Made by a program: the position numbers and the translations under genes. The notes beneath the pieces were generated by a model, which had not been told where the DNA came from, searched no databases, and saw only the letters and a program-made list of their open reading frames with translations. This document shows, piece by piece, positions 1 to 14,750 of a DNA stretch of 15,546 bases (positions are counted from its first letter, which is position 1; the number at the start of each line of letters is the position of its first letter). The stretch comes from a virus (Duplodnaviria > Heunggongvirae > Uroviricota > Caudoviricetes): positions 1-15,546 of IMG/VR virus record IMGVR_UViG_2541047895_000009, one strand, 5' to 3'.

Positions 1-662
<662 letters not shown>

Positions 663-922
663 ATCCACGCCAGCGTGAAGCTGGTATCTCCGGCAGATTT
701 CTGCCCCTGCCCGGTCGCAGTCCAGTCCGCATCTTCATCATCGAGATAGCTGTCGTCATAGGACTCAGCGCTCAGTTCGCCGGGCGTCAGGTCTTTAACT
801 TTAGCCAGACGCGACCAGTCAACGTCTGAAAGCGGGTTCGCATAAGGGTCACCGTTCCCCTTATAAACCCACAGGGTGGTCCCGGCCCCTTTCACCGGCA
901 TTACTGGATTTGGTACAGGCAT
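663..922 (-). pseudogene. V: major tail protein V, N-terminal 86 codons only, truncated by the IS insertion
   Basis: Translation [22 protein letters not shown]...DTSFTLAW matches the lambda gpV N-terminus, then reads into IS-derived sequence ([11 protein letters not shown], stop). ATG at 920-922 lies 7 nt after the U stop. Confidence 0.85.
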
Positions 923-929
923 ATCGTCC

Positions 930-1325
930 TCACATTTCATAGGTAATGACATAAGTCAGATCGGCTGAACTCCACAGGCCCGCATCATCGTCGCGCCGGT
1001 AGTCATAGCCACTGGCCACCATACTGGTGATCAAATCTGACAGTGCCGGGACATCGCTCATCACCGGATAAATCCGGGACTCCATCCACGAATCCAGCTC
1101 TGAATCCGGCACCTGAGCAGGCAGGAAAACTTCAATATGCAGCTCCGCCTGCCAGGTATCGCTGTCCAGCTCTTCGCCCGTGTATTCAGCGCCGGTGAGA
1201 TAAACGGCAACTGCCGGAAAATCCGCCTCATCAAAAACAGCGGGGCGACCATCAAAAAGCGTCGCCCCGGTGTCATGCTTCTCCAGTGCATCCAGTACGG
1301 CTGCACGGAGTTCTGTATGTTTCAT
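930..1325 (-). CDS. U: tail terminator protein U
   Basis: 131 aa, near-identical to lambda gpU as recalled ([22 protein letters not shown]...LTYVITYEM). ATGA overlap with the Z stop. Confidence 0.93.
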
Positions 1326-1900
1326 CGCTTTATTACCATCCTCAGTTGATGCTGCAGCGCATAGCCCAGCTCTTTCGGAAGACGTTCACGCCGTATCCGC
1401 TCAATATTCTGTTTAAACGCCGTGGTCAGCGGCACTGCCATCGGGATTTTCACCACATCAATGGGGTAACGGTTTTTCCCGGCCACACGCTGCATGACAT
1501 GCCACCGGCCATTTTTCAGTTGCTGAATAAACGCGCCGGGAATACGACGGTTTCCCACCACAAGCACGCTGTCGCCACCTTTCAGGGATGAACGCTGCCC
1601 CTTTTTACGACGCCTGCGTCGGGACAGGACAACCCGCGCGTTACCCAGCCTGATTACGGGCAAATCCCCCCGGTTAACCTTGATTCTGGCCTGCGGATTT
1701 TTGACCGTGGCCCTTTTCAGCCTGGCCCTTTCCTTTACCAGTTTCCGGCGTACCTTTGTCTCACGGGCAACCTGTGACGCCGACTGCGATATCGCGGATG
1801 AAGCAACGCGGTTAATGGCCATTGCTGACGCACCAGGCACCGCCGTTCTGCTGATACGGCTGAGGTTTTCAACGGCCTGCTCAAGACCTTTTATGGCCAT
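1322..1900 (-). CDS. Z: tail completion protein Z
   Basis: 192 aa, matches lambda gpZ length and sequence (MAIKGLEQAVENLSRISRTAVPGA...). AGGAGGAGG ribosome-binding site upstream of the ATG at 1898-1900. Confidence 0.93.
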   Translation of the reverse strand: MAIKGLEQAVENLSRISRTAVPGASAMAINRVASSAISQSASQVARETKVRRKLVKERARLKRATVKNPQARIKVNRGDLPVIRLGNARVVLSRRRRRKKGQRSSLKGGDSVLVVGNRRIPGAFIQQLKNGRWHVMQRVAGKNRYPIDVVKIPMAVPLTTAFKQNIERIRRERLPKELGYALQHQLRMVIKR

Positions 1901-1911
1901 ACCTCCTCCTT

Positions 1912-2265
1912 TCAGCGACGACGGTTAACGGCAGGCGGCACGCCACGCCCAAGCCAGAGATGACAGCTTCCGCCATCATCCGGTGAAATCCGGTCTATCC
2001 AGAAGTTTTCCTCACCGATGGTCAGCGTGTCGCCGCGCCGCAGCTGCCGCACATCATCAGTCCGGACAAACAGGGACGGGCAGGAGCCTTCAACACGTAC
2101 GCCCTGTCCGGCATAGCTGATATTTTCAGGGTCATCAAAAACACCACGTATTACTGCGCCGGACTGCTCACCGGATGTCATGGTGGCTGACGTTCCCATG
2201 TACCCGCGTATCGTTTCATCGGCGCGGGCAATGGCAGCATCGAACAGGTTATCGAAATCAGCCAC
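1912..2265 (-). CDS. FII: head-tail joining protein FII
   Basis: 117 aa, MADFDNLFDAAIARADETIRGYMG..., GTG start preceded by GGGAGG. Matches lambda gpFII. Confidence 0.92.
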   Translation of the reverse strand: MADFDNLFDAAIARADETIRGYMGTSATMTSGEQSGAVIRGVFDDPENISYAGQGVRVEGSCPSLFVRTDDVRQLRRGDTLTIGEENFWIDRISPDDGGSCHLWLGRGVPPAVNRRR

Positions 2266-2276
2266 AGCGCCTCCCG

Positions 2277-2675
2277 TTATTGCATTCTGGCCAGGCCACG
2301 TTCTGTCATTTCGGCTGCCACACCGGCAGAGACACGAAATGCCGTTCCCGGCAGCACAAATGCCACAGGTTCATCCCGCGTGGCGTGAAGTGCATCAGTA
2401 TGCAGCGTCACCAGTGCCACGACCGTGGCCAGTTCAGCCGTATCCTGAATCACGGTGTCCGGCTGCGCTGATACCACCTCATTTTCATGCCCGGTCAGCA
2501 CATTTTCCGGGCCGGGAGGGGTATCCTGACCCGCAGCGTCATCCGTGTCATCAAGCTCCTCTTCCAGCTCTGCCACACGGAGCGCCAGTTCTTCTTTCGT
2601 CCCCGTCAGGCTGACATCACGGTTCAGTTGTTCACCCAGGGAGCGGAGACGGGCAATCAGTTCATCTTTCGTCAT
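2277..2675 (-). CDS. FI: DNA-packaging/head assembly protein FI
   Basis: 132 aa from MTKDELIARLRSLGEQLNRD... to ...ERGLARMQ. GGAGGAG ribosome-binding site before the ATG at 2673-2675. The longer 145-aa ORF in the track is an upstream extension. Confidence 0.92.
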   Translation of the reverse strand: MTKDELIARLRSLGEQLNRDVSLTGTKEELALRVAELEEELDDTDDAAGQDTPPGPENVLTGHENEVVSAQPDTVIQDTAELATVVALVTLHTDALHATRDEPVAFVLPGTAFRVSAGVAAEMTERGLARMQ

Positions 2676-2716
2676 GGACTCCTCCACAGAGAAACAATGG
2701 CCCCGAAGGGCCATGA

Positions 2717-3508
2717 TTACGCCAGTTGTACGGACACGAACTCATCAGGGTCAGCCAGCAGCATCAGCGGTGCTGACTGAATCATGGTGAACTCACGCGC
2801 CGGATCGCCGGTGGTCACCCAGTTTTTCGGGTAGCGGGCAGAGGCGTTAATGCCTTCGCGCTGTGCGTCCGCATCCTGAATGCAGCCATAGGTGCGCAGA
2901 CCGCGTGCCTGAGTGTTCCCCAGTACCATCGTGTTGTCCGGCAGGAAGTTCTTTTTGACGCCGTTTTCCACGTACTGTCCGGAATACACGACGATGGCCA
3001 CATCGCCATACATCCCCTTATAGGACACCGCTTTACCCAGGTCTTTTACCGCTGTCTCCAGCTCGGAATTAGAGCCGCGACGGGTATCCAGCTTCTCCCT
3101 GACAGCTTTGAAGGAACGGAACAGCGCCCAGCCTTTCGGATCAAACACGATGATATTCACCACACCGCTGGCATTCAGCGCGTAGGCTTCAATATCGTCG
3201 GTCGGGTCATACGTGGACTTGTCACGCTTGCTCCACTCCGTGCCGCCGGACTGTGTGATGTTGTTCGCCGCACTGCGGCCCATATCCACCTCAACCGGAT
3301 CGAAGGCTTCACCGGTCATGGTGTATTTGCCCCTGAGCACGGCAGAAACGGCCTGCATCTCTTCGACCTGAGCAATGGCCAGCTCTTCGTCTCGCATGTT
3401 CTGCAGGATGATGCGACGGCGGCGGTAAGCCGGGTCCGCCAGATTCTGTGGATCTTCATCCGGCAGGCGACGCAGAGTCATCTGCGGATTCACCTCATGC
3501 TTGGGTTA
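2717..3508 (-). pseudogene. E: major capsid protein E, C-terminal fragment (codons ~83-341), separated from its 5' part by the inserted element
   Basis: Translation (PKH)EVNPQMTLRRLPDEDPQ...DEFVSVQLA matches the lambda gpE C-terminal 259 residues. An in-frame TAA lies immediately upstream of the homology and there is no promoter-proximal start. Confidence 0.9.
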
Positions 3509-3512
3509 CATG
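3494..3512. other. left junction of inserted element (attL-like): ctcaTGCTTgggttacatg
   Basis: Lambda E homology runs to about 3502, then diverges. The sequence is an imperfect direct repeat of 14911-14930 (aagTGCTTcggcttgacata), sharing the TGCTT core. Confidence 0.6.
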
Positions 3513-3583
3513 AGTCAAATATGAAAGGATGTGAATGATTTTTAGTGATAATATGCTTCAGAATTACTTCCAAAACGAACCGT

Positions 3584-3604
3584 TGCAATACATCATGCAA
3601 TACA
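3584..3604 (+). repeat. tandem direct repeats TGCAATACA (2 copies), candidate arm-type integrase-binding sites on the attL side
   Basis: TGCAATACA at 3584-3592 and 3596-3604. The same motif recurs in the same orientation at 14766-14802 beside int. Confidence 0.4.
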
Positions 3605-3626
3605 CAGGATATGTAAGGAGTTATTA

Positions 3627-3812
3627 ATGACTAATTCAGTTGATGTTCAAACCCGTAGAGAAGAATTTGAGCAAGGATATCGAGATGGCTTTCGTTCGGT
3701 TCAGGGCAATGTTTTACCCCCAAAAGCTCCAAGAATTGTACTTGAAACGGGTTCAAAACCTTACGATCAAGGCCATGCTTACGGGGTCAGAGATGCTGGA
3801 GGCAAGCGGTAG
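3627..3812 (+). CDS. small hypothetical protein (61 aa), first gene of the AT-rich cargo operon
   Basis: ATG at 3627 preceded by AAGGAG at 6-nt spacing. The overlapping alternative ORF 3640-3834 has no ribosome-binding site. No recognisable domain. Confidence 0.4.
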   Translation: MTNSVDVQTRREEFEQGYRDGFRSVQGNVLPPKAPRIVLETGSKPYDQGHAYGVRDAGGKR

Positions 3813-3856
3813 CTATCACTGGTATAGTCCATAGAAAAAGTGTAAGGGGTCCTAAA

Positions 3857-4618
3857 ATGGATAATTTTCTCAATGAGTTTTCGTCGGATCAGGAACGAGC
3901 TAGACATTTAGAGAACTTATTAATTAAGGTTGCTCGAGGAGGACCTCGAGATAATAGTGAAAATTATATTTCTCTTAGATCGTACTTTATACAAAACTCT
4001 GTATTAAAACTGTTGCTTCCTGCATTCGTAAGAGAAAACAGAAGCCTAAAAAAATTTTGGGGATTCATACAGCAGAAGTTCCCAACATATAAAGAGCGCG
4101 AGTACTTCATCTCAACTGAATTCACACCGTTATTCGATTATTTCGAAGAGAATCATGCTACGCCTTCGGATGTTCACATAACTGACGGATTAAGAAGCTA
4201 TGATGAGTGTGGCGTGAATGAAGCTTGGGCAAAAGCTCTAGACAGAAGAAACAACGATCCTGAAGGGGCTATTACAGCATCTAGAACATTGCTTGAGACG
4301 GTTTGTAAACACATTCTTGATGATTTAAGTATTACTTATGATAGAAATCTAGACATGAGTGAACTTTATAAACTAACATCCAAAGCACTTAATTTGGCTC
4401 CAGATCAGCACGGAGAACAGATTTTTAAGCAGATACTTAAAGGTTGCTCATCTGTGGTAAATGGCCTTGGCAATTTACGTAATAAATATGGCGATGCTCA
4501 TGGCATAGGGAAAAAACCAATAAAACCTGCTGATCGACATGCTCTTTTAGCTGTTAATCTTGCAGGAAGCATGTCAGTTTTCCTCATTCAAACATGGCAA
4601 AACTTGTCAAACAAATAA
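3857..4618 (+). CDS. Abi_C-domain (abortive-infection C-terminal, HEPN-like) protein, 253 aa
   Basis: C-terminal motif block ...TASRTLLETVCKHILDDL...GCSSVVNGLGNLRNKYGDAHG...ADRHALLAVNLAGSMSVFL matches the Abi_C pattern, including an R-x6-H motif (RNKYGDAH). AAGGGG ribosome-binding site 7 nt before the ATG. Strongly AT-rich relative to flanking phage DNA. Confidence 0.75.
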   Translation: MDNFLNEFSSDQERARHLENLLIKVARGGPRDNSENYISLRSYFIQNSVLKLLLPAFVRENRSLKKFWGFIQQKFPTYKEREYFISTEFTPLFDYFEENHATPSDVHITDGLRSYDECGVNEAWAKALDRRNNDPEGAITASRTLLETVCKHILDDLSITYDRNLDMSELYKLTSKALNLAPDQHGEQIFKQILKGCSSVVNGLGNLRNKYGDAHGIGKKPIKPADRHALLAVNLAGSMSVFLIQTWQNLSNK

Positions 4619-4671
4619 TACCTAATTTTTAACCTCAACTGATTAAATTTCGGTCAAACATCCGTTAGTGA

Positions 4672-4712
4672 AATACAAGTTGCTATGTAAATACACACCT
4701 GCAACTTGTATT
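4672..4712. promoter_or_regulatory. perfect 12-bp inverted repeat aatacaagttgc-N17-gcaacttgtatt, about 54 nt downstream of the Abi_C gene
   Basis: Read directly from the sequence. No U-run follows on either strand, so it is not a canonical intrinsic terminator; an operator or RNA structure is possible. Confidence 0.45.
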
Positions 4713-5572
4713 ACCAACCAAGTTTAGCTCCCGATATTACTCATTTCCATTATTTTTCCTTGGCTAGCGCTTCGTCGAACATTTTTACGTGTTATCTTCA
4801 AGGTAGATGCTCGCAGAAATGATAGTACCACCGATTCGGCGTTGACCATAAGCCAGCAGAACAAGATCCCCTTGGCCGGTTGTATTCGTTACACCACCAA
4901 ATGCATAGAATGCCTTGTTATCAGTATCTTGCTTACTCGGCTACCCACAAGATTGTGGGGATAGCATTTGAGCAACGTAGCCTATCGTCACAGAAGCCCC
5001 TACTACAAACATCATATTACTGGACGCTATACGCGCTCCTGACATTCAGATAGACACAGCAACGCAAATCATTTGCAGCAGACCAGAGCTTTTACTTTCC
5101 ACAATAACTGGCACAAATACGAATTTCCCGACCCTCAGTAGAGAGCACAAGCGCATCTTTTCCAATATTCTGTTTCCTATGAAAAATACAGAATGTCAGC
5201 TCGCGAAATTTACTAGTATTCAGATACTTTTCTAATCGAACCTCTCAGTTTAATCGTCATCATTACCTTATAGCTCTGCATTTCGAGTTCCTACAGTAGA
5301 GTAAGTGTTCAGTAACCCAAGTTCAGGAGAAAGGAAACGATCATGCCATTTTCAGTCCCAAATAATGCTTTCCATTTCCTTTCTTTTCAGGTGGTGTTTT
5401 AAATAAAAACATAAAGTTACGGCGAAGAAGAACGGAAACGCCTTAAACCGGAAAATTTCCATAAATAGAGAAAAACTGCGCGCCTTCCGCCCCGTAACGC
5501 TCCGGATCACCGGAAAGGACCCGCTCAAAAAAAGCGGCCACTGACGTGATTGTTTATGTTCCATGAGCGACA

Positions 5573-5592
5573 AAACCGCCCGGAGGCGGTTT
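5573..5592 (-). terminator. putative intrinsic terminator after the I-like gene
   Basis: Stem aaaccgcc/ggcggttt with a 4-nt loop. On the minus strand the stem is followed by UUUUG, about 20 nt after the I-like stop. Confidence 0.4.
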
Positions 5593-5610
5593 CACATAAA
5601 ACATTCTGCA

Positions 5611-6258
5611 TCAGCGACCAATCACCACGATTTCACCACCATCACCTTCATCAGCTGTGCTGATCTCCTGAGATACCACACGTGACCCCACGCGCATTTC
5701 ACCGTACAGAACAGGCAGGACATTGCCCTGGGCAACCATGTTATCCAGTGACGAGAAATACGTGTTCTGCTTACCGTTATCCGTTGTCTGTGTACGGGGA
5801 GTTCTGGCTTTCGGTGCCAGCATCTGAGCCACACCGCCAAGGATCATACTGGCCCCCGCACTATACATTCCTGTAATTGCTGCCGCTCCTAGCCAACCAG
5901 CGGGGTTCCACCACGCCACCGCAATCAGCGCCGCCCCCAGCACGGTCTGAAACACACCGCCACTTTTAGCGCCAGCAAGACGCGGTACGATGTGGATCAC
6001 AGCACCATTCGCCAGCGGCTCATTAAGACGGGCTGATAATTCATTTTCGCCTGCATCCCGCCCGGCAATCCGTACCTGATACCAACCGTCGCTCAGTTTC
6101 TGACGAAACGACGGTAGCTGTGTGGACAGAGCTCGGATGGCTTCAGCCCCCGTTTTTACACGAAGGTCGATGCGGCGGCCGAATCGTTGCAAATCCCCGT
6201 AAAGGCAGATTCGTGCCATGCCCGATGACGCCAGAGGGAGTGTGTGCGTAGTTGCCAT
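5611..6258 (-). CDS. lambda gpI-like tail assembly protein (215 aa)
   Basis: N- and C-termini (MATTHTLPLASSGMARICLYGDLQRFGRRIDLRVKTGAEAIRAL... and ...KQNTYFSSLDNMVAQGNVLPVLYGEMRVGSRVVSQEISTADEGDGG) match lambda gpI as recalled, with a divergent central segment. It is not followed by a J gene but by a hairpin and ORF-free DNA. Confidence 0.8.
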   Translation of the reverse strand: MATTHTLPLASSGMARICLYGDLQRFGRRIDLRVKTGAEAIRALSTQLPSFRQKLSDGWYQVRIAGRDAGENELSARLNEPLANGAVIHIVPRLAGAKSGGVFQTVLGAALIAVAWWNPAGWLGAAAITGMYSAGASMILGGVAQMLAPKARTPRTQTTDNGKQNTYFSSLDNMVAQGNVLPVLYGEMRVGSRVVSQEISTADEGDGGEIVVIGR

Positions 6259-6298
6259 TTGTCGGTATACCTCTCTCGTTTGCTCTGTTGTTCAGAAA

Positions 6299-6682
6299 TT
6301 AGCAGATCAACTTATAGCGTCCCTTCCGAGCATTGCGGCGTACACGTTCAATCTTGAGGCATAGCGCCGCATCTGGCTTTTTTGGGACTGGTACACGGCA
6401 ATATTCAGAAGCGCGAGGAATATTATTTATCCAGTCAATCACTTCGCTTAAATACCAGGCCTTACGCCCTTCCGTAACCTGCACACGCTCCGGGAACTCT
6501 CCACGGGCCTCAAGGTTTAGCAGTGTACGACGACTCAGGGTTGTAAGTTCCATCACCTGATTCATATCAACAAGACGCTCGCTTAAACGCATTTTGTCAG
6601 CGATAGCTTTTAATTCCTCTACAGCTGGATTTGGGTACATAATTTCGGCAATTGGCTTAAGGTCATTGTAATGATTCTGCAT
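6299..6682 (-). CDS. AlpA-family (MerR/Xis-type helix-turn-helix) DNA-binding protein with an N-terminal extension, 127 aa
   Basis: Core ...MELTTLSRRTLLNLEARGEFPERVQVTEGRKAWYLSEVIDWI fits the AlpA pattern. AAGGGGGA ribosome-binding site 5 nt before the ATG at 6680-6682. Confidence 0.6.
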   Translation of the reverse strand: MQNHYNDLKPIAEIMYPNPAVEELKAIADKMRLSERLVDMNQVMELTTLSRRTLLNLEARGEFPERVQVTEGRKAWYLSEVIDWINNIPRASEYCRVPVPKKPDAALCLKIERVRRNARKGRYKLIC

Positions 6683-6693
6683 TGTATCCCCCT

Positions 6694-7035
6694 TTACACA
6701 CGAGCCAGCGGCTGAACAGAAATACCTGAGCCAACAAACGCTGCAACCTTTACTGACAGTTCTTTTACAGACTCAGGCCAGTTCAGAGCATCAACATTTA
6801 AGACACCTGTCTTATAGACCTGAGCCTGTGTTTTTTTCGCGGTGTCGATTTGTACAGCGGATACATAAACCGCTTTACCTACGCTCGTACCATCCCATAC
6901 CACCAGTGCACCTGTTGCATCTTCCTGCATCAGTGGCGTAAATGCAGGAATTACCCCTTTATTAGCTGAAAATATCCCCAGCGTAGTAACCAGTGCTTCA
7001 GTGCCAGCCATGAGTTCAGTGTAATGAGTAGCCAT
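6694..7035 (-). CDS. gpD-like head decoration protein (113 aa), divergent from prophage D
   Basis: ALVVWDGTSVGKAVYVSAV...YKTGVLNVDALNWP aligns with the lambda gpD motif [19 protein letters not shown]...[23 protein letters not shown] ribosome-binding site; translationally adjacent to the E-like gene. Confidence 0.75.
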   Translation of the reverse strand: MATHYTELMAGTEALVTTLGIFSANKGVIPAFTPLMQEDATGALVVWDGTSVGKAVYVSAVQIDTAKKTQAQVYKTGVLNVDALNWPESVKELSVKVAAFVGSGISVQPLARV

Positions 7036-7044
7036 TGCTCCCCC

Positions 7045-8085
7045 TTAGCCAATGCGAACGGTAACAAAACGATTGATGCGGGCCGGTATTGGCTGTGGTG
7101 CTGAATGTGTCTGCACATATTCAATAGCCGGATCACCAGGCACAATATAGTTTTTCGGTGCAAGTTCGGCTTTAGTCAGCCCCATTCGGATTAGCTCCGG
7201 ATCCTGAATACCGCCATAGGCGACAATCCCCTGAAGAGCCGTATTGCCAAGCACCATCAAATCAGGATCAAGGAAATGTTTTTCAGTTCCGTCCTCGTCG
7301 GTATAACGCCCGCTGTAAACAACAATCGCAACATCGCCCATATACCCTTTAAAACTCACCGAATCACCAAGGTCTTTAAGGGCCGTTTCCAGTTCGGAAT
7401 TAGAACCACGACGGGTATCCAGAGCCTCTTTTATCGCTCTGAATGAACGGTATTTCTTCCATACATTACCGCCCATAATGATGATATTAGTGACGCCCTC
7501 ACTAAATTCTGCGTAGTTCTCAATATCATCATTTGGATCAAAAGTTTCTTTATCCTTACCTGACCACTCAGCACCGCCAGACTGAGTGATGATATTTTGT
7601 GGTTTAATATTCCAGTCCAGCTCATAACGTTCAATACCATCGCCCTCAATGATATTTTTCCCCGTTGTGATTGCCTGAACGGCAAGCCATTCAATACGTG
7701 CACGAATAGCTTTAGCTTGATTTACAATCGCCTGTTTAACTTTAATATTACGCGCCCCAAAAGCATTGTATTGCTCAGGTGATACACCAGCAGGGCGCAC
7801 AGCTAACTTATTTGGATCAATGCTGCTTTTCGGCTTCATATAGCCTGGACGAATTGTTTTTGATTCGTACCCTTCGTCACGTGAAACTTTACTACCCACC
7901 ATAGGAGAACAAAACGCTGCAATTGGGATATTTGGATCGTCGATTGTATCAAGAATAATATCGCGCGATTCAAACATTACCGAGCGAGTAAAAAACAAAC
8001 GGGTAAACAACGCATTTAGTTGTTTTTGTACATCTACAGCATTAACCACCTGTACAAGCTGGGTAGGCGAATATAAATCAACCAT
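7045..8085 (-). CDS. lambda E-like major capsid protein (347 aa), divergent second copy encoded within the inserted element
   Basis: Clear homology along its length to lambda gpE (GYMKPK vs GYVKPK; ITQSGGAEWSGKDKETFDPNDDIENYA vs ITQSGGTEWSKRDKSTYDPTDDIEAYA; LDTRRGSNSELETALKDLG...GDVAIVVYSG). Start taken at the ATG at 8083-8085, 6 nt after AAAGAGG; the 404-aa track ORF is an upstream extension. AT-richer than the prophage E. Confidence 0.85.
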   Translation of the reverse strand: MVDLYSPTQLVQVVNAVDVQKQLNALFTRLFFTRSVMFESRDIILDTIDDPNIPIAAFCSPMVGSKVSRDEGYESKTIRPGYMKPKSSIDPNKLAVRPAGVSPEQYNAFGARNIKVKQAIVNQAKAIRARIEWLAVQAITTGKNIIEGDGIERYELDWNIKPQNIITQSGGAEWSGKDKETFDPNDDIENYAEFSEGVTNIIIMGGNVWKKYRSFRAIKEALDTRRGSNSELETALKDLGDSVSFKGYMGDVAIVVYSGRYTDEDGTEKHFLDPDLMVLGNTALQGIVAYGGIQDPELIRMGLTKAELAPKNYIVPGDPAIEYVQTHSAPQPIPARINRFVTVRIG

Positions 8086-8259
8086 ACGCATCCTCTTTGC
8101 ATTCATTAAAAATAATTGTGGATATATGCTATCACCGATATTTGTCATGCGAATACATGCAACCGAGTGCAATGTTGTATAAAGTTTTGGGATGACAACT
8201 TCAGCGCGGATAATTAGTGTTAATATCTTCACTCCCTTTGGTCGGGATTTATGTAGCAT

Positions 8260-8294
8260 GCCGGAAAATTTATTTTTTTCCGGCCTTTTTTATT
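8260..8294 (+). terminator. GC-stem hairpin plus T-run (gccggaaaa-N7-ttttccggc CTTTTTTATT), terminator-like on the plus strand
   Basis: Read from sequence between ssb and the E-like gene. The U-run follows the stem only on the plus strand, so it would stop antisense or convergent transcription rather than ssb read-through. Confidence 0.35.
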
Positions 8295-8302
8295 GGCAAT
8301 AT

Positions 8303-8752
8303 TTAAAACGGAATATCATCTCCCCATTGCTCATTATCTCCCACTGGTGGATGGCTTCCTTGCTGATCTGCCTGTTGTTTTGCTCTGTTCAGTGCGTCAG
8401 TAGCCTGCCCCTGTTGGCCTTTTTTGCCGCCCGGTCGCACCGTTCGCGCACTGATTACGCTGTCTGCGATAACCTGCCAGCCCTGCCGCGTTTCACCGTT
8501 CTGTCCAGTCCACTGACTCACCTGCATGTTACCCGCCACGCTCAGGAGTTCGCCTTTGTGATGCTTTGCCAGCGCGTCGGCTTGTCTGCCAAACGCCAGA
8601 ACAGATAACCACATCGTCGCCTGACCGTCATCCGATTGGCTGCAGGGCAGTGATACCGCCATACGCGCCAGCGTCATGGGGGTGCCCTTGCTGGTCTGTT
8701 TTGTCTGCGGGGCGTCCACCAGCCGCCCGTAAGCTGCTATTTGCGCCGTCAT
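8303..8752 (-). CDS. ssb: single-stranded DNA-binding protein (SSB)
   Basis: 149 aa. OB-fold-like N-terminal region, Gly/Gln-rich linker and the hallmark acidic C-terminal tail ...WGDDIPF. ATGA overlap with the upstream ORF. Confidence 0.85.
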   Translation of the reverse strand: MTAQIAAYGRLVDAPQTKQTSKGTPMTLARMAVSLPCSQSDDGQATMWLSVLAFGRQADALAKHHKGELLSVAGNMQVSQWTGQNGETRQGWQVIADSVISARTVRPGGKKGQQGQATDALNRAKQQADQQGSHPPVGDNEQWGDDIPF

Positions 8753-9006
8753 GCTGCCTGCTCTCCGGACTTAATATTGATGGTTGTCACTTCCTCCGCT
8801 TCGGCAATCTCCCGTTCGGTCAGCGTGGCAAAGTTTGCAGCCGCCGTTGTCATGAATGCGCTTATCAGTTCGGGATGTGCTTTCGCGTATCCTTCCCCGG
8901 CGTTGCGGTCTATTGCCTTAATCGCCACCCTTAGCCAGTGTTCAGCCATATCAAGGGCGCGGTAATGTGGCTTTATATGTTTGTTCAGTTTTCCTGATGT
9001 GTGCAT
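8749..9006 (-). CDS. hypothetical protein (85 aa), between origin and ssb
   Basis: ORF translationally coupled to ssb (ATGA overlap). No recognisable motif. Confidence 0.45.
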   Translation of the reverse strand: MHTSGKLNKHIKPHYRALDMAEHWLRVAIKAIDRNAGEGYAKAHPELISAFMTTAAANFATLTEREIAEAEEVTTINIKSGEQAA

Positions 9007-9051
9007 TTTTATTTTTACCCCCTCGTTTAAAAAGTTTTTTGTGCACCACCA

Positions 9052-9283
9052 CCTTGTCTACCTTGTCTACCTGATTAGTTATCAGGCCAGTAATGGCGCG
9101 GGTTTCAGGGAGGTAGACAGCCCCAAATAGCTGTCTACCTCATCTCTACCCGTCTCCTTACCTGTCTACAAAAATGGGTAGATAAGGTAGATAACAGGTA
9201 GACAGTGAAAAATAGTTATCTACCTGCATTAATACATTGAAATAAAAGTATTTTCTTTCAGTCAGGTAGACAAGGTAGATAAC
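9052..9283. repeat. iteron array, putative replication origin: at least 11 copies of GGTAGA(C/T)A / T(G/A)TCTACC in both orientations
   Basis: Copies include cttgtctacc x2 (9053-9071), gaggtagacag, gctgtctacc, cctgtctaca, gggtagataaggtagataacaggtagacag, ttatctacc and caggtagacaaggtagataacc. Lies immediately downstream of the primase gene in an AT-rich non-coding gap. Confidence 0.7.
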
Positions 9284-9295
9284 CATTGCCATTTT

Positions 9296-11047
9296 TTATA
9301 AAAACGCATCGCAATCATCAGTAGTCGTTGCGTTGGTCTGCGTGACTCCCTTAACTTTTCGCGTAATATATTCATATCCGTAAACTTTCGCCGCTGACCT
9401 CATAGCCTTTCCGAACTCATTCACGCTCAAACATTTCCCCTTTCCTGTGTATGCCATGAAGGCCATATAGACACGGTAAAGGCTGTTTCTGGTCGTGTAC
9501 TTCACGGAGTCACCACCACCGCCCATCATTAGCCCACGAGCTTCCTCCAGAAACTCAAGCGCCGCGCAAAGCTCAACAACTGGATCCGTTTGCTGCTTTA
9601 TTGCCAGAGCTTCATCACCGTCACGCTGTTCCAGTAGTAAAGCCCTTGCCTTTTCAGGGTCAGCAAAGTTAGCCAGCAAGCGGCGGATAATTACGGGGAT
9701 TTCTGCCGCTATCTTTTCCGGTAATTCCTTGTCTTTTTCGTCCTCCCTTACAATGTTGTCGAACCGGAAAATCACCCGACGGCGTGACACACCTCCGGCC
9801 CGTTCGGTAAAGATCATCGGGTCGTTATTGGTTGCCAGTACCACCGCCCTTATTATCGTCGTGAATCGCTTCTCATATTTCGGATTGATTTCAACGGGAT
9901 CGCCTCCCGTGATTTTCTTGATGCCCGTGCCTTCCCCCGTATATTTCGGCTGATCGGCAAGGACGATAAGACGACTCCCGACAACCTGCGCGCGCCCTCC
10001 TGCATCATCGAGTGATGTCATCTCTGCGCTTACGGTGTTCTGTTTGCCTGCAAGCAGGGTGGCAATATGGGTAAATGTACTCTTACCGCTTCCCCCGTCT
10101 CCGGTGGCCTCAATGAACATCTGCCAGTCGTAGCGGTTCGCCATAATCATGTATAACGCGGCACATATACGCATCATCTTGCGCGGGTCTTTTCCTGCAG
10201 CATGTTCAAGCCATTTATGGAAATTTGGCGCATTATCGCGGATGTTTTCCCCTGCTACTGGTGGCGTGTACTCAATACCATTGTGCGTGGTGCTCCAGTG
10301 CTCCGGCGAGTGCGGAGAAAATTCCCCCGTTTTCAGATTAAGCACACCATTAGTGAACGGTAGCAAATCACCGGACGGCTCCCCCATGGGGGCGGCAATA
10401 ACTTTTAACGCTTCCACGGCGTTATTGATTACGCGTTTGCTGAACGTGGCCCTGTGCTCTGAATAGATCGCCACCATTTCGCGGCTCAGCTCCATTGTGC
10501 TGACCGGACACCATACCCCGCCGCGCCATACGTGGACGATTTCACTTTCTGCATGAACACAAACACCATCAAAGCGATCGGCAAGTAGTTGTGCCCGCTC
10601 ACTGTCTGCCATCTGTGAAAGTTGCGCCTTTTGCTTCGTCGGAAGATTAAGCACCAGGCTTTCCCCACGCTCGCATTCCTCTTTGAGTCGCGGCAACTGG
10701 TCGGATAAATCCACAGGGCTGGTGTCAGTAATCCCCGCGTATTCGTGTACGGTCTTCACTCCAGCCACAGCCAGTAACGTAACAATCTGCGTCATGCTGT
10801 GCTCTGTGATATGTCCTGCGCGGTAAACACGCACACACTGACGATCTTCATCAATGATCCGGTAATCGGTGATGTTTTTCAGTTGCTCATCAGCCAGCAC
10901 GACAGGCGGCACATCGTCGGCGGCAATATGTTTACCCGCCCATTCCTGCCACTCTTTCGCATGGCTCCACGCATCACTACCTGCAAAGATGATTACCTCT
11001 GTCAGTCTGTCGCGTGGCTGTTTTTTTAAGTTCGGTGCCAGTTTCAT
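9296..11047 (-). CDS. P4-alpha-type primase/replicase (D5-N / phage-plasmid primase C-terminal family), 583 aa
   Basis: Walker A P-loop EATGDGGSGKSTF plus the typical satellite/PICI primase-helicase layout. ATGA overlap with the upstream 99-aa ORF. Confidence 0.88.
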   Translation of the reverse strand: MKLAPNLKKQPRDRLTEVIIFAGSDAWSHAKEWQEWAGKHIAADDVPPVVLADEQLKNITDYRIIDEDRQCVRVYRAGHITEHSMTQIVTLLAVAGVKTVHEYAGITDTSPVDLSDQLPRLKEECERGESLVLNLPTKQKAQLSQMADSERAQLLADRFDGVCVHAESEIVHVWRGGVWCPVSTMELSREMVAIYSEHRATFSKRVINNAVEALKVIAAPMGEPSGDLLPFTNGVLNLKTGEFSPHSPEHWSTTHNGIEYTPPVAGENIRDNAPNFHKWLEHAAGKDPRKMMRICAALYMIMANRYDWQMFIEATGDGGSGKSTFTHIATLLAGKQNTVSAEMTSLDDAGGRAQVVGSRLIVLADQPKYTGEGTGIKKITGGDPVEINPKYEKRFTTIIRAVVLATNNDPMIFTERAGGVSRRRVIFRFDNIVREDEKDKELPEKIAAEIPVIIRRLLANFADPEKARALLLEQRDGDEALAIKQQTDPVVELCAALEFLEEARGLMMGGGGDSVKYTTRNSLYRVYMAFMAYTGKGKCLSVNEFGKAMRSAAKVYGYEYITRKVKGVTQTNATTTDDCDAFL

Positions 11048-11343
11048 TTTTTGCCCCTGAATGCGTTAATCATGCTTTTCATTTTCTGGATGTTTCCCCG
11101 CGCTTTTTCCCTGCTGGTGGGCTTACTGCGGGGTGCGGCATATACCAGGGAAAAATCACGCCGGAACTGATAAACAGGCATCACGCAGTCATAGCTATAC
11201 CCCTCACGGCGGTAAGTGATGCGCCGTTCTGCCACGCCTTTAATCGTTACCGTGCCGCCGTATTTATCGCGGTAAATATCGCCGTTCATAAATTCAGGCC
11301 GAGCGGGGCCGCTGGCAATAAAGCCAGAATTTTTCATTTCCAT
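11044..11343 (-). CDS. hypothetical protein (99 aa), translationally coupled to the primase
   Basis: ORF with ATG at 11341-11343; its stop overlaps the primase start. No motif recognised. Confidence 0.55.
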   Translation of the reverse strand: MEMKNSGFIASGPARPEFMNGDIYRDKYGGTVTIKGVAERRITYRREGYSYDCVMPVYQFRRDFSLVYAAPRSKPTSREKARGNIQKMKSMINAFRGKK

Positions 11344-11360
11344 ATTATTTATTCTTCGAC

Positions 11361-11582
11361 TTAACTCGACTTATTTGATAGCAGGGCACTATTTATTGCG
11401 TCATTGAGTTTTTCTGCTGCTTCATCAATAAGTGACAACAGGCCATAAGCAATATTTGCATCTTCATTGTCATTTATGCAATCAAGCCACATATTTAATA
11501 TTGCTTTTGCTGAATTATTTAAAGTTAATGAACTCTCTGCACATGCTAACAATTTAAAAAAGACTTCTCGTTCTGTATTCAT
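11361..11582 (-). CDS. hypothetical small protein (73 aa), AT-rich
   Basis: ORF in a tightly packed same-strand array upstream of the primase. Confidence 0.45.
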   Translation of the reverse strand: MNTEREVFFKLLACAESSLTLNNSAKAILNMWLDCINDNEDANIAYGLLSLIDEAAEKLNDAINSALLSNKSS

Positions 11583-11774
11583 TTAATCCCCCACCAGCTT
11601 ACTTTCTTCCTCAATCAGGAAACTAGCGACACTTCCCGAAAGGCGCGCCAGTAGGCTCGCCAGCGCGGATATATCAGCATCTGTAATTTTGTTCGGGTAT
11701 ACCTCAAGAAGGCGGCAAATAATCTCTGTTTGGTGCGCACGTTCAGCGGCTTCGTGTAATGTGATTTCCTGCAT
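11583..11774 (-). CDS. hypothetical small protein (63 aa)
   Basis: ORF abutting neighbours with start/stop overlaps, suggesting an operon. Confidence 0.45.
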   Translation of the reverse strand: MQEITLHEAAERAHQTEIICRLLEVYPNKITDADISALASLLARLSGSVASFLIEEESKLVGD

Positions 11775-11959
11775 TAATGCACCTCTTTTAATTCATACAC
11801 TGCTGAAATAATGACTTGTGATAAGCCATATTCTGATGATTCGCTTCTCACCGCAGCAATAGCCGTCTGAACATTAACAGCCTTCACGTTCTGAGCGATA
11901 CCAATTGTGTGGCCTCGTGGGTTAACAGCTCGGGCAAATACACGGAAGGTTTTAAGCAC
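11774..11959 (-). CDS. hypothetical small protein (61 aa), GTG start
   Basis: GTG at 11957-11959 preceded by AGGAGG at about 6-nt spacing. Overlaps the stop of the upstream ORF. Confidence 0.45.
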   Translation of the reverse strand: MLKTFRVFARAVNPRGHTIGIAQNVKAVNVQTAIAAVRSESSEYGLSQVIISAVYELKEVH

Positions 11960-12155
11960 GGCGCACCTCCTGACGAATACGGGCAGCGAATACCATCACG
12001 CAGCCAGTTGGGGATTGCTGGCGGGCTTCCTGTTCGCTGATGGCCTCGATGGTAATCACGCGCGGTTGTGCCGTACTCAAGGCGATAAAACGCCAGATGT
12101 ATTTATTCAGGTTGTGCGAGTTCCGCCCTTGCGGGTGTGTGGTATGATTTCTCAT
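11952..12155 (-). CDS. hypothetical small protein (67 aa), first gene of the leftward regulatory operon
   Basis: ATG at 12153-12155 preceded by GAGGT. The longer track ORF (to 12215) would run through the upstream inverted-repeat region. Confidence 0.45.
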   Translation of the reverse strand: MRNHTTHPQGRNSHNLNKYIWRFIALSTAQPRVITIEAISEQEARQQSPTGCVMVFAARIRQEVRRA

Positions 12156-12190
12156 AGCTACCTCGATACTGTTGCTATCGTTGGTGGTTA

Positions 12191-12292
12191 AACGCCCTGT
12201 ATGTGTTGCGAGCACTGCAGGGCGTTGTTCCAGAGCAATAAAACATGATAAGGTGTGTACCTATCAAGAAGCATACTAAGCAATAGGTACAT
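12191..12292. promoter_or_regulatory. divergent promoter/operator region with two inverted repeats
   Basis: AACGCCCTG-N18-CAGGGCGTT (12191-12226) and GTGTACCTAT-N18-ATAGGTACAT (12255-12292), located between the divergently oriented small-ORF operon and the RHH gene. Confidence 0.4.
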
Positions 12293-12294
12293 AC

Positions 12295-12489
12295 ATGTCA
12301 ACTATCATTCAGCGCGATAAACAGCCGAAAGGTGCTGGTAAGGCACCGGCATTTCAGATCCGTATCAACCCGGAACTAAAAGAACAAATGGTTAGTGCGG
12401 CTGCAAAAGAAGGAATGAGTTTGGCTAATTGGCTTAAAGAACTAGCAAGAGCAGAACTACGCAAACAAGGTATTGAACCTAGAGGTTAA
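12295..12489 (+). CDS. Arc/ribbon-helix-helix-type small DNA-binding protein (64 aa), candidate repressor or antitoxin
   Basis: KAPAFQIRINPELKEQMVSAAAKEGMSLANWLKELARAELRK fits the RHH beta-strand plus two helices pattern. No obvious Shine-Dalgarno; the second inverted repeat abuts its start. Confidence 0.6.
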   Translation: MSTIIQRDKQPKGAGKAPAFQIRINPELKEQMVSAAAKEGMSLANWLKELARAELRKQGIEPRG

Positions 12490-12513
12490 GACTTTTAAAA
12501 GGATCTGTGAGAG

Positions 12514-13239
12514 ATGCAAAATCTAAAACGAATAAGTGAATATAATTTAACAGACAATCCTATCCCACATTATTTCCCTCATGATAGTAGATTCCTGTCT
12601 CTACTTGGGAAATTTTCGTTCCGACTTGAAGATCTAATAGTATTTCACTCATTTGTTTATCATACATATAACATAAATCTTAAGGAGATACAAAAAATTG
12701 CAGATAACACTCCCCAATATAATCCAGACTTATTAGACGATGAAGAGCATGAAATGGCCTTGATTTCTCAAGCCAGACATAGAGAGAGGGTTGGTTATTA
12801 TGATGATCTTAATAGAAAAGCCTCATTTTTTGCCAATGACAGTGTCGTAATTAATCTTTGGGCTATTATTGAACAGTTTAGTACCATGGCATACTCTTTG
12901 CTAGAAGCAATTATTAAAGAAATACCTGAAAATCAAGTTAAAGTTCCATATACATGGGATAAATTAAAAAAGAAATACTTAAGTTATGGTATTGACCTCT
13001 CCCAACTTGATTCTTACGATGTCATTAACGAAACTAGGGTTTTAAACAACAAAATCAAACACCTTTATATTGTCGATGAAAACCTTGCCTCTTTTCCTTT
13101 TTTCAAGGACAAAGAGAACAAGTCATTATTAGGAATGGAATATAGGCTTCAAGATTATGTTATTGGAACTCATAAGTTCATCGGGCATCTTTTAGAGGAT
13201 TGCTCCATAAAATTAGGAAATAAGGCAAACATGATTTAA
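12514..13239 (+). CDS. hypothetical protein (241 aa), very AT-rich cargo gene downstream of the RHH gene
   Basis: Long uninterrupted ORF 24 nt after the RHH gene. No motif I can assign with confidence. Confidence 0.65.
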   Translation: MQNLKRISEYNLTDNPIPHYFPHDSRFLSLLGKFSFRLEDLIVFHSFVYHTYNINLKEIQKIADNTPQYNPDLLDDEEHEMALISQARHRERVGYYDDLNRKASFFANDSVVINLWAIIEQFSTMAYSLLEAIIKEIPENQVKVPYTWDKLKKKYLSYGIDLSQLDSYDVINETRVLNNKIKHLYIVDENLASFPFFKDKENKSLLGMEYRLQDYVIGTHKFIGHLLEDCSIKLGNKANMI

Positions 13240-13243
13240 ATTA

Positions 13244-13270
13244 ATTAGGTAGGTAATAAACCTACCTAAT
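13244..13270. terminator. perfect 10-bp inverted repeat attaggtagg-taataaa-cctacctaat between convergent genes
   Basis: Read from sequence; sits between the 241-aa gene (+) and alpA (-). AT-rich flanks on both sides, so possibly a bidirectional terminator. Confidence 0.45.
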
Positions 13271-13279
13271 TGAAATGAT

Positions 13280-13513
13280 TTACTTATTTAAGTACCATTC
13301 CCCACGAATCCACGCCTGCACCTCCGAAAGGCGATATGCTACGGCAGTGGCACCTATTTTAATTCGCTTTGGAAACTTTCCTTCTTTCTCTAACTTCCAT
13401 CGAGTGCTATTAGCAAGAGTAGTTAACTCACGGCATTCTTTCTCACGGATCATTCGGTCAATGTTAGGAATGTATTCCAGACCCTTTTTATCAACAATTG
13501 CCATTTTTTTCAT
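13280..13513 (-). CDS. alpA: AlpA-family excisionase/transcriptional regulator (77 aa)
   Basis: ...CRELTTLANSTRWKLEKEGKFPKRIKIGATAVAYRLSEVQAWI fits the AlpA helix-turn-helix pattern. Immediately downstream of int on the same strand. Confidence 0.8.
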   Translation of the reverse strand: MKKMAIVDKKGLEYIPNIDRMIREKECRELTTLANSTRWKLEKEGKFPKRIKIGATAVAYRLSEVQAWIRGEWYLNK

Positions 13514-13514
13514 G

Positions 13515-14750
13515 TTAACCAGCCTTTTGTTTGAGGATTGTCACTTTTGAATCAGCAGCTGCGATGCTATTGAGATATGTAGTCCAGAGTTCCAGAGCAT
13601 CCAGTTTTTTAGCCATAAACTTACTCCGGTTGTAAACACCTGCCACGCCAGGTAGCGCATGGCCTAACAGTTGTTCTACTACATAAAATTCAACACCGAG
13701 ATCACTTAGATGAGTAGATAGCGTTCTTCTAAGGTCGTGTAGTGACCATTGTTTTTCATGGCCCAAACGTTTACCGATTTTCCCCCCAATCTTGCTTACG
13801 CTTTCTCTAATTCGCAGACTTCCCAGCACATAACCAGTATGTTTTGTCTCTTCGTGAACATCCGTTACCCACTGTCGTAGAATTTCAGGTACTGGTCTGA
13901 CGATTTCAACACCAGTTTTTGAGTGATCTTTTGGTACAGTCCAAACCCAACTTTCGAGATCCCATTCGCTCCATTCTGATAATCGGGCTTCACTCATTCG
14001 ACATCCAAATACTGTACAAAGCACAAACATTTTTCGCGTGTATTCAGACATTAGTTTTAAATCAGGCTCGACAAAAATTGCCTTCCAGAGCTGGCCGAGT
14101 TCGGCTTCATCCAGAACCCGATCCCGCTTACCTGCAATCTGCCCCACATCACTCATGCGCAAATCCTTTAAAGCATCACACGTCGCGTACTGGCGTACCC
14201 GACAAAAACGAAGAGCTAATTTAGTGTCAGAAAAAACATACGCCGCCATAACTGGTGCATTACTTTTAATTCGGTCAAAACAGTCCAGCCATTCATATAG
14301 GTGAGTGTCATTTACGGGCAAATGACCGATATAGGGAAAGATATGCTTTCGAAATCTGCCAAGCGTTACAGCATGAGTTTTACGACGCACCTTACAGTAA
14401 TTTTCATACCAGTAATTTAGTGCATCCTCCACTGTGACCGGCTTTAAGCGTTCTTCAGCCTGAATCTTAATCTGGATACGCGGATCACGTTTGTCAGCCA
14501 ACCAAGCACGGCACTCGTCGCGCTTTTCCCTTGCCTGTTTGAGTGACATATCAGGATATTTACCCAACGTTAGCCAGACCGGAGCAGCCCGGCCACCTGC
14601 TAACCTGTAGAAGAAAACAAAGCTCACAGCCCCCTTGGTACTCACACGAATAGAAAGCCCCTTTCCATCAGCAATGGTGATCTGCTTTTCTCTGGGTTTC
14701 CCCAGATATCCTTTAAGTGCTTTGTCGCTCAGTTTGTTCTCGCCAGCCAT
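13515..14750 (-). CDS. int: P4-type tyrosine integrase (411 aa)
   Basis: N-terminal arm-binding-type domain (LSDKALKGYLGKP...ADGKGLSIRVSTKGAVSFVFFYRLAGG...WLTLGKYPDMSLKQAREKRDE) and a catalytic domain with R...HDLRRT...LLGH...Y. Start taken at the ATG at 14748-14750; the 455-aa track ORF is an upstream extension. Ends about 160 bp inside the right junction. Confidence 0.9.
   Translation of the reverse strand: MAGENKLSDKALKGYLGKPREKQITIADGKGLSIRVSTKGAVSFVFFYRLAGGRAAPVWLTLGKYPDMSLKQAREKRDECRAWLADKRDPRIQIKIQAEERLKPVTVEDALNYWYENYCKVRRKTHAVTLGRFRKHIFPYIGHLPVNDTHLYEWLDCFDRIKSNAPVMAAYVFSDTKLALRFCRVRQYATCDALKDLRMSDVGQIAGKRDRVLDEAELGQLWKAIFVEPDLKLMSEYTRKMFVLCTVFGCRMSEARLSEWSEWDLESWVWTVPKDHSKTGVEIVRPVPEILRQWVTDVHEETKHTGYVLGSLRIRESVSKIGGKIGKRLGHEKQWSLHDLRRTLSTHLSDLGVEFYVVEQLLGHALPGVAGVYNRSKFMAKKLDALELWTTYLNSIAAADSKVTILKQKAG

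Follow-up and report, generated by a model that had tools for sequence, protein, structure and literature searches.

Capsid genes in phage satellites

We analyzed a 15,546-nucleotide stretch of DNA (the window; positions 1 to 15,546 of IMG/VR virus record IMGVR_UViG_2541047895_000009). It is the minus-strand late operon of a lambda-type Escherichia coli prophage in which the major capsid gene E is interrupted by an integrase/AlpA/primase element, and this element brings a capsid gene (E-like) and a decoration gene (D-like) of its own. [quoted passage not shown] Capsid genes are the commonest late genes of these islands, being present in 21 of 29 reference islands (Tommasini 2023, PMC10111431).

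One group of close relatives, the helper-embedded PICIs (HE-PICIs), carry their own capsid gene (Tommasini 2023, PMC10111431), and 201 helper-embedded elements occupy the site named E:Phage_cap_E:80 (Tommasini, Mageeney and Williams 2023, PMC10111431). For the prototype of this group, Eco567.11capE, excision and some replication were shown and no virions were recovered (PMC10111431). The main text of that paper mentions no decoration gene, second AlpA-like gene or I gene.

The other close relative is EcCICFT073, in which c1499 (capsid) is followed by c1500 (head decoration), downstream of the primase and single-strand DNA-binding protein (SSB) genes. A solved structure, PDB 3BQW (“putative capsid protein of prophage”), has the c1499 sequence at every one of the 351 residues. 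With c1499 and c1500 deleted separately, lambda was still blocked and the island's transfer by its resident helper did not change (Fillol-Salom et al. 2018, PMC6092414). The DNA packaged by EcCICFT073 was all phage-sized, and c1499 was without detectable phenotype (Fillol-Salom et al. 2018, PMC6092414). Our literature search found no later functional work on the capsid/decoration pair.

More distant satellites also alter or supply capsids. SaPIbov5 encodes Ccm, a capsid homologue that changes capsid size and shape (Carpena 2016; Hawkins 2021, PMC8569155). Besides a capsid protein, the capsid-forming PICIs (cf-PICIs) encode their own protease, portal, head-tail adaptor, connector, HNH protein and both terminase subunits, TerS and TerL (Alqurainy et al. 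2023).

Comparison of the locus with known satellites

The insert in the window is 11,416 bp long (3499-14914, minus strand), with its bounds set by the split E gene and a common AAGCA core. The window from 3300 to 15300 is 100% identical to E. coli 2015C-4136CT1 (NZ_CP027550.1), for which Supplementary File 1 of Tommasini et al. 2023 (PMC10111431) lists “Eco8487.11.E_Phage_cap_E_80 CP027550.1/1601914-1590499” with the identity block “aagca”. The catalogued span (CP027550.1 1590499-1601914) maps onto window positions 3499-14914, and thus the element is already catalogued. It is almost certainly an HE-PICI of the E:Phage_cap_E:80 site group, every sequence-testable defining feature of which is present.

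An earlier reading of the window from its sequence only (the sequence-only reading) had proposed an undescribed capsid-hijacking strategy, a proposal overtaken by the catalogue entry and by the precedent of SaPIbov5 Ccm. What it observed is confirmed, and its interpretation is upheld in part. Both the satellite type and the capsid/decoration pair are already known, and no new category is involved. The additions made here are the satellite-only lineage of a gene trio, its contexts at several integration sites, the selection acting on it, and the limits and recurrence of an I gene cassette.

The element shares with the HE-PICI group the site in a lambda-type E gene, the int/AlpA/primase backbone (96-98% nucleotide identity), the doubled attP motif, the capsid gene and a cos-like site. 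It differs in that this copy and two near-identical ones add an I cassette and an AbiJ-like gene, and in an att identity block of 5 bp where most members have 10 bp.

EcCICFT073 has the same gene pair in the same order, and E-like resembles c1499, as D-like resembles c1500, more closely than either resembles a protein of any helper or phage. Unlike the present element, EcCICFT073 is integrated in the chromosome and not inside a helper, and it has an unrelated 137 amino acid protein behind c1500 in place of an AlpA-like gene. The Rpp protein of EcCICFT073 redirects the helper TerS to a divergent cosB, whereas the present element has no Rpp homologue and a lambda-like cosB.

SaPIbov5 Ccm resembles E-like in being a satellite homologue of a helper HK97-fold capsid protein in a cos-packaged satellite. 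It differs in its Gram-positive host, the absence of sequence relationship and the lack of a decoration partner, and the nearest tested relative of E-like caused no size change. Like the present element, cf-PICIs encode capsid proteins in lineages apart from those of phages (Alqurainy et al. 2023), but the present element has shell and cement proteins only. We rejected cf-PICI membership since no protease, portal, connectors, HNH protein or terminase was found in the element. In P4, the helper capsid protein is used with an external scaffold, Sid, and Psu stabilizes the P4 heads. P4 is not known to have a capsid homologue of its own, and neither Psu nor Sid has homology with the satellite E-like and D-like proteins.

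The E-like, D-like and AlpA-like genes

The E-like gene (7045-8085, minus strand) encodes a 346 amino acid major capsid protein (Pfam Phage_cap_E, E=4.5e-41, profile positions 4-327 of 329; PHROG major head protein). It starts at the ATG at 8085, with the Shine-Dalgarno sequence AAAGAGGA upstream; the sequence-only reading had given it 347 amino acids. We rejected a 404 amino acid open reading frame (ORF) reaching to 8259 as a spurious upstream extension. The protein is 42% identical both to lambda E and to the prophage E rejoined across the insert, which agrees with the earlier description of it as homologous to gpE yet divergent. Among PDB profiles it matches 3BQW (6e-121) and lambda gpE (7VI9; 8e-77 over residues 12-345), and these full-length matches place it in the gpE family of HK97-fold major capsid proteins. 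Identity with helper E is uneven, at 20-38% over residues 1-160 and 60-65% over residues 161-280.

The D-like gene (6694-7035, minus strand) begins 9 nucleotides past the E-like stop codon, has its own GGGGGAG Shine-Dalgarno sequence, and encodes a 113 amino acid head decoration protein (Pfam HDPD, E=4e-15, positions 1-111 of 116; PHROG head decoration). It is 38-40% identical to D (38% to prophage D), and its best PDB match is phage 21 SHP (1TD0, 6.5e-16), with further matches to 7VII/1C5E (~3e-12). By sequence, D-like is a member of the gpD/SHP decoration family, and its formation of trimers and binding to E-like are putative. The satellite order, capsid then decoration, is the reverse of the lambda order (D 5747-6079, E 6135-7160), as had been noticed from the sequence. 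We rejected the idea that E and D had been captured recently from the helper itself, given the 42% and 38% identities, the reversed order, and the absence of any phage protein above 42%.

The sequence-only reading described a block of E-like, D-like and I-like genes. Pfam and PHROG matches place all three on the minus strand where it had put them; it overlooked a fourth gene (6299-6682, minus strand) that lies between D-like and I-like and encodes a second AlpA-family winged helix-turn-helix protein of 127 amino acids (Pfam Phage_AlpA; PDB 8C3T, 1.6e-10). Profile comparison with hhalign gave this protein a probability of 96.9% with the AlpA of the element, 10.6% with lambda Nu1 and 0.4% with RppA. 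On this basis, it was rejected as an Rpp or TerS-type DNA-binding protein. The AlpA-like protein may be a late regulator.

The spacers between the four genes (E-like, D-like, AlpA-like and I) are 9, 11 and 40 nucleotides long and a Shine-Dalgarno sequence precedes each gene, so the four look like one operon. G+C content is 41-48% over E-like and D-like and 55-57% over the I gene. A perfect hairpin with a 9-bp stem (GCCGGAAAA...TTTTCCGGC, 8260-8284) occurs in the 217-bp gap between ssb and E-like; it is flanked by A and T runs and resembles a terminator for the opposite strand. In the protein collection, two proteins, P0005 (463 amino acids) and P0092 (470 amino acids), contain the Phage_cap_E and HDPD domains in a single polypeptide. 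These may be read-through or fused capsid-decoration proteins, or may be due to sequencing errors at the 9-nucleotide spacer.

A satellite-associated lineage and its contexts

Among 50,697 phage records, the best match of E-like is lambda E, at 42.3% identity. In a large protein collection, the matches of E-like fall into two groups, one at 50-99% identity and at least 358 bits and the other at no more than 44% and 286 bits. The single exception is an oddly labelled 517 amino acid entry (P0047; 44%, 386 bits). EcCICFT073 c1499 is 55% identical to E-like, and c1500 is 54% identical to D-like.

All 13 of the upper-group contexts examined are int/alpA/primase satellites with the capsid gene followed by the decoration gene, 0-14 bp apart, and in 10 of them an AlpA-like gene lies directly behind the decoration gene. 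The contexts came mainly from exact-protein look-ups; a scan of species-representative genomes with the capsid alignment gave only 4 loci, and the derived peptide patterns were narrow. Besides the window, five contexts lie inside E (L002, L005, L014, L015 and L019). One lies within portal gene B of a helper whose D-E, downstream, is intact (L009). Others adjoin fis (L007, L011 and L020), lie between cspD and clpS (L006), adjoin phoQ (EcCICFT073), or occupy a myovirus-type tail region (L018). Two more loci (L012 and L013) have the same capsid-decoration-AlpA-like block, with integrases that were not located. A member of the lower group (44% or less), in contrast to these, sits in an ordinary Nu1-A-W-B-C-D-E prophage. 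The synteny of the module holds across at least ten genera, and a full-length copy was counted in 395 E. coli genomes out of 5,426 complete ones.

The ratio of nonsynonymous to synonymous substitution rates (dN/dS), calculated against the relative L006 (80% nucleotide identity), is 0.088 (0.085-0.09) for E-like and 0.084 (0.084-0.095) for D-like, with comparisons at dS of 1.2 and of ~0.25 (overall range 0.08-0.11 for both). These values are the same as or lower than those of the primase (0.09-0.18). They show that both genes are under purifying selection.

Taken by sequence, the E-like/D-like/AlpA-like trio is a conserved, satellite-only lineage of lambda-family shell and cement proteins accompanied by a regulator. 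It is old, and PICIs of many Enterobacterales have it whatever their integration site. Because these genes form a lineage of their own, keep their order in satellites and are under purifying selection, pseudogenes and prophage debris can be ruled out. Those were the two outcomes that the sequence-only reading had named as fatal to its proposal: dN/dS is ~0.09 at dS ~1.2, and the genes are a conserved satellite module and not the leftover of a second prophage.

Some satellites have other capsid arrangements. In a Lelliottia PICI at the fis site (L011, 11409-12752), the capsid and decoration genes are followed by an S49 (gpC-like) protease/scaffold gene, which looks like a step toward a fuller head set. 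Another PICI type, located by ung/rpoD in Citrobacter and Salmonella (L021, 3697-5610; L025, 3668-5608), has a single gene for a 637-646 amino acid ClpP-type protease and Phage_capsid_4 protein. Behind this gene, the Salmonella copies have DUF1441, and an I homologue comes next.

Possible roles of the capsid and decoration pair

The block is almost certainly the late zone of the satellite, and on balance we favor the interpretation that the private capsid/decoration pair is used as an accessory structural module. More tentatively, at somewhat less than even odds, satellite particles would use the two proteins as structural shell and cement. In the proposed mechanism, the four genes would be expressed as one tightly spaced operon with a ribosome-binding site for each gene. 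In the integrated state, as Tommasini et al. (PMC10111431) proposed, the Q-antiterminated late transcript of the helper would read through the satellite, and after excision the AlpA-controlled transcription of the satellite would take over. E-like subunits would assemble on the helper portal and protease/scaffold (B, C/Nu3), either alone or mixed with helper E, and cognate D-like trimers would cement the E-like lattice. The helper terminase would package satellite DNA from the lambda-like cos, with four copies (45.7 kb) per lambda-sized head, and helper tails would be added last. Since deletion of c1499 and c1500 in EcCICFT073 left interference and transfer unchanged, the contribution of E-like and D-like is indicated by analogy to be accessory and not essential.

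Several points weigh against this interpretation. The present element is known from its genes alone, and capsid building is deduced from homology and purifying selection; such selection shows that there is a function and not which one it is. E-like is just 42% identical to E, so its use of the lambda portal and scaffold is putative. The founding member 11capE excised and replicated, yet no virions were recovered (PMC10111431), and c1499 and c1500 had no phenotype in EcCICFT073 (PMC6092414). By analogy, any structural role would be dispensable with lambda, phi80 and the native helper in laboratory conditions.

Satellite capsid proteins could instead act on the helper. Size redirection in the manner of Ccm, with E-like alone or as pentamers among helper hexamers forming small one-genome heads that exclude the 48-kb helper genome, seems improbable to us. 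A satellite capsid homologue does this in SaPIbov5, the Pasteurella PICI PmCI172 (which also has a capsid homologue) gives small heads, and the pair is under selection; the departure of E-like from E, greatest in the N-terminal 160 residues and least at residues 161-280, could also fit. EcCICFT073, however, packaged only phage-sized DNA with lambda, loss of c1499 or c1500 changed neither interference nor transfer, and four 11.4-kb copies would fit a normal lambda head. It is also quite unlikely that E-like and/or D-like poison the head assembly of the helper or of incoming lambdoid phages in a dominant-negative way, to the benefit of satellite or host. Satellites commonly interfere with helpers, the same element carries AbiJ-like defence cargo, and the tests of the EcCICFT073 knock-outs had Rpp present, which itself blocks lambda and would have masked a weaker second block. 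Neither deletion released interference, though, and a matched decoration gene beside the capsid gene in 13 of 13 contexts would better fit productive assembly. The sequence-only reading had put forward both a change of capsid size and a dominant-negative subunit. The deletions of c1499 and c1500, whose products are 55% and 54% identical to E-like and D-like, argue against the former and against a strong, non-redundant form of the latter, at least in EcCICFT073.

A third possibility is that E-like only replaces the interrupted helper E so that heads can form before excision, as Tommasini et al. (PMC10111431) proposed in suggesting a back-up for the helper gene that is interrupted. The satellite has the same orientation as the late operon, so late read-through would express E-like. 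The same trio occurs where E is uninterrupted (L007, L011, L020, L006, L009, EcCICFT073 and L018), and therefore replacement of a broken E is not the general reason for the module. In addition, at 42% identity E-like is no copy of the helper gene, and a satellite D would be needless beside the intact helper D. We consider this explanation very unlikely. The notion of a passive remnant, decaying after a second prophage or an old capture and without present function, is hardly credible: the lack of phenotype in EcCICFT073 and the defective resident helper would suit it, but dN/dS of ~0.09 over dS of ~1.2, intact reading frames and ribosome-binding sites, synteny in all 13 contexts across at least ten genera, and the frequency of the full-length module among complete E. 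coli genomes (395 of 5,426) do not.

The accessory structural module can be extended into a broader proposal, which we regard as rather unlikely. Enterobacterial PICIs may keep a private capsid kit (shell, matched cement and second AlpA-type regulator, in many cases with gpI) that is unseen in sequenced phages, and use it to build their own shell on the helper portal and scaffold and to alter the tail tip. If so, PICIs with such a kit would form a class midway between two others: classical PICIs steal whole virions, and cf-PICIs steal tails only. The negative EcCICFT073 knock-outs would on this view be put down to redundancy or to an unsuitable helper or assay, and gpI would alter the tail tip through which DNA exits. 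A membrane-active gpI could instead serve to exclude incoming phages. The commonest late genes of Gram-negative PICIs are a capsid/decoration pair that is clearly under selection, comes from a lineage absent from sequenced phages and is represented by a solved structure (3BQW). The role of this pair and the carriage of gpI can both be addressed directly by lambda genetics.

The I gene cassette

The I-like gene (5611-6258, minus strand) encodes a 215 amino acid tail-tip protein (Pfam Lambda_tail_I, E=1e-23; PHROG tail assembly) that is 78% identical to lambda gpI across its full length. This identity and the G+C content of 55-57% are in accord with the earlier description of the gene as near lambda-like. 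The gene lies in a captured single-gene cassette of 744 bp (5556-6299, minus strand), which has 88-91% nucleotide identity to lambdoid K-I regions and 80% to lambda 14733-15496. The cassette opens 40 bp upstream of the I start, at a point within the 3' end of K, and closes 9 bp short of the J start. The RefSeq “K fragment” is just the portion of K that overlaps I.

Sister elements with a backbone 96-98% identical have 31 bp from the AlpA-like stop codon to the cos-like site, where this element has 781 bp. Both cassette junctions occur together in 3 of 5,426 complete E. coli genomes, all near-identical. The sequence-only reading had included I in the block; it is a rare later insertion, missing from sister elements. 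By these comparisons, the I gene is a recent, clean one-gene capture from a lambdoid tail operon, separate from the conserved trio.

A terminator-like hairpin (AACCGCC-tccg-GGCGGTT followed by a short T run, TTTG; 5571-5593, minus strand) lies just past the I stop codon and comes from the phage I-J spacer. The sequence-only reading had I ending the block with its own terminator. The hairpin follows the stop codon and is backed by folding (z = -4.45 for 5520-5615), but a consensus terminator scan did not call it at 5571-5593.

Lambda gpI is a trimeric tail-tip component; its binding partner is the C-terminus of the tape-measure protein, and on infection it may insert into the outer membrane. 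An I homologue of the N15/phiKO2 type, 35-40% identical to the present I, ends the late zone in several other satellites. We found it in Kluyvera (L012, 12062-12661), Serratia (L007, 12119-12748, and L008) and Salmonella (L025 and L026, 6001-6594), and the Salmonella protein is very widespread in the protein collection. Two Citrobacter PICI types (L020 and L021, 6001-6600) have an identical 199 amino acid I protein with different capsid modules. In the published genotype table, Lambda_tail_I is the last late gene of two Klebsiella helper-embedded elements (Tommasini 2023, PMC10111431). Between the Kluyvera and Citrobacter satellite copies of the I homologue, dN/dS is 0.085 at dS ~1, and a 75% identical relative occurs in a normal Klebsiella tail operon. 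Our literature search found no paper linking PICIs with tail assembly protein I.

These observations support I as selected cargo in PICIs rather than debris, as judged from substitution patterns. As such cargo, I may alter helper tails or act in exclusion. The present capture is one case of a recurrent PICI habit of closing the late zone with an I homologue. That gpI homologues recur among the PICIs of several genera suggests that satellite and helper have a second interaction, on the tail side.

Packaging signals

A cos-like packaging site of 150 bp (5375-5524, minus strand) lies beyond the I cassette. Its identity is 87% with the stretch just upstream of Nu1 (nohD) in the resident prophage, 91% with lambda bases 13-118 (the cosB side), and 92% with the site of another E-inserted satellite; sister elements have it in the same place. 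At the 12-base cosN position (5485-5500 region, minus strand) this element has GGGCGGAAGGCG and L005 (at about 3590) has GGGCGTCAGGCG, where lambda and helper prophages have GGGCGGCGACCT. The flanks of this variant cosN on the cosQ and cosB sides are ~90% conserved. A perfect lambda cosN was not found in the window, and the single match with 2 mismatches falls within an IS3 transposase.

Packaging redirection of the Rpp type needs Rpp (144-153 amino acids, with a TerS-mimicking DNA-binding domain) and a cosB unlike that of the helper. We rejected it for this element: there is no BLASTP match to RppA, the hhalign probability is 0.4%, and the cosB-like region shares 91% identity with lambda. A terS is likewise missing from the element; in some sister elements one of the Nu1 type follows cos.

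Four tandem copies of the 11,416-bp element amount to 45.7 kb. The lambda packaging window is 78-105% of genome length, and a four-copy multimer lies within it and would therefore suit a lambda-sized head. Packaging of four copies would be consistent with the multimer packaging reported for EcCICFT073.

Integration site and other genes of the element

The insert interrupts prophage E at codon 82/83, with AAGCA at both junctions, as the sequence-only reading had recognized when it described the element as disrupting this gene. The 5' fragment of E (codons 1-82; 14914-15158, minus strand) ends in the attL core AAGCA (14914-14918) and is annotated as “major capsid protein, missing C-terminus”. 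The 3' fragment (from codon 83; 2717-3497, minus strand) adjoins the attR core at 3498-3502. Rejoined over AAGCA, the two pieces form a 341 amino acid ORF that is 98.5% identical to lambda E, and this in silico joining of the junction halves at the 5-bp identity block is the predicted excision product.

The HE-PICI-unique doubled motif has one copy on each side of the attP core, near -81 and +132 bp (Tommasini 2023, PMC10111431). Here, TGTATTGCagctTGTATTGC is found in the int-side attP arm (14766-14785, minus strand, ~131 bp from the core) and TGTATTGCatgaTGTATTGC in the other arm (3585-3604, minus strand, ~83-95 bp from the core). The doubled TGTATTGC motif, searched as TGTATTGCnnnnTGTATTGC, has exactly two perfect matches in the window, and these are co-oriented.

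The insert has the layout of a Gram-negative PICI: 11.4 kb, with int, alpA, a variable zone, a primase and a late zone, and without lysis genes or a complete head or tail set. In order, it encodes the integrase and AlpA; an Icd-like gene, small ORFs and DUF4222; a D5-type primase, an 85 amino acid ORF and SSB; the capsid block; and the cos-like site. The backbone proteins are 45-92% identical to their EcCICFT073 counterparts. The tyrosine integrase (13515-14750, minus strand; a RefSeq coding sequence with Pfam Arm-DNA-bind_3 and Phage_integrase) is 83-88% identical at the amino acid level to those of Cedecea and Kosakonia satellites that are inserted in E. Adjoining it is the annotated AlpA regulator/excisionase (13280-13513, minus strand; 54% identical to EcCICFT073 AlpA), and the int-alpA-attL region has 97.8% nucleotide identity to other E-inserted elements. 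The replication zone includes a primase/helicase (9296-11047, minus strand; D5_N, DUF5906 and Pox_D5 domains; 80% identical to the EcCICFT073 primase) and SSB (8303-8752, minus strand; assigned by Pfam and by comparison with EcCICFT073). Given the int/alpA/primase satellite layout and the att sites, we rejected the element as a second-prophage remnant. A scan with Rfam for C4/isrK-type immunity RNAs, known from some PICIs, gave no match at the gathering score.

The satellite has two variable cargo spots of low G+C content (3542-6305 and 12492-13294). The first contains an AbiJ-like gene and a 61 amino acid ORF. The AbiJ-like gene (3857-4618, plus strand) encodes a predicted abortive-infection protein as accessory cargo (Pfam Abi_C, 1.7e-23; PADLOC AbiJ, 2.4e-22; G+C 38%) and is swapped for other genes in sister elements. 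The second has a HicB-like antitoxin ORF (12295-12489) and a 241 amino acid protein without a family match (12514-13239). Sister elements hold DUF2971, SWIM, TIR, DUF262 or terS genes in these spots.

The resident prophage

On the minus strand, the window contains D, E codons 1-82, the 11.4-kb insert, the remainder of E, FI, FII, Z, U and a V fragment, and the satellite core genes share this strand with D, E, FI, FII, Z and U. Prophage D (15214-15546) is 95.5% identical to lambda D.

The prophage is decayed (window 1-654 and 629-952; NZ_CP027550.1 record L001, 40292-41776): an IS3-family element (window 1-654) cuts off the tail tube gene V, and a second copy cuts off the replication gene P. 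The annotation in NZ_CP027550.1 lacks tail genes past the V fragment, and a repressor, N and O are likewise missing. Because of this decay, the satellite is probably stranded in its present host until another helper comes.

The prophage arm left of the satellite (window 1-3300) differs by 0.2-1.6% from NZ_CP027550.1. Within gene Z, where 1539-1643 stands out, the window has 45 bp extra, and Z encodes 192 amino acids here and 177 as annotated in NZ_CP027550.1. It seems that the window comes from a sister genome or that this arm has recombined.

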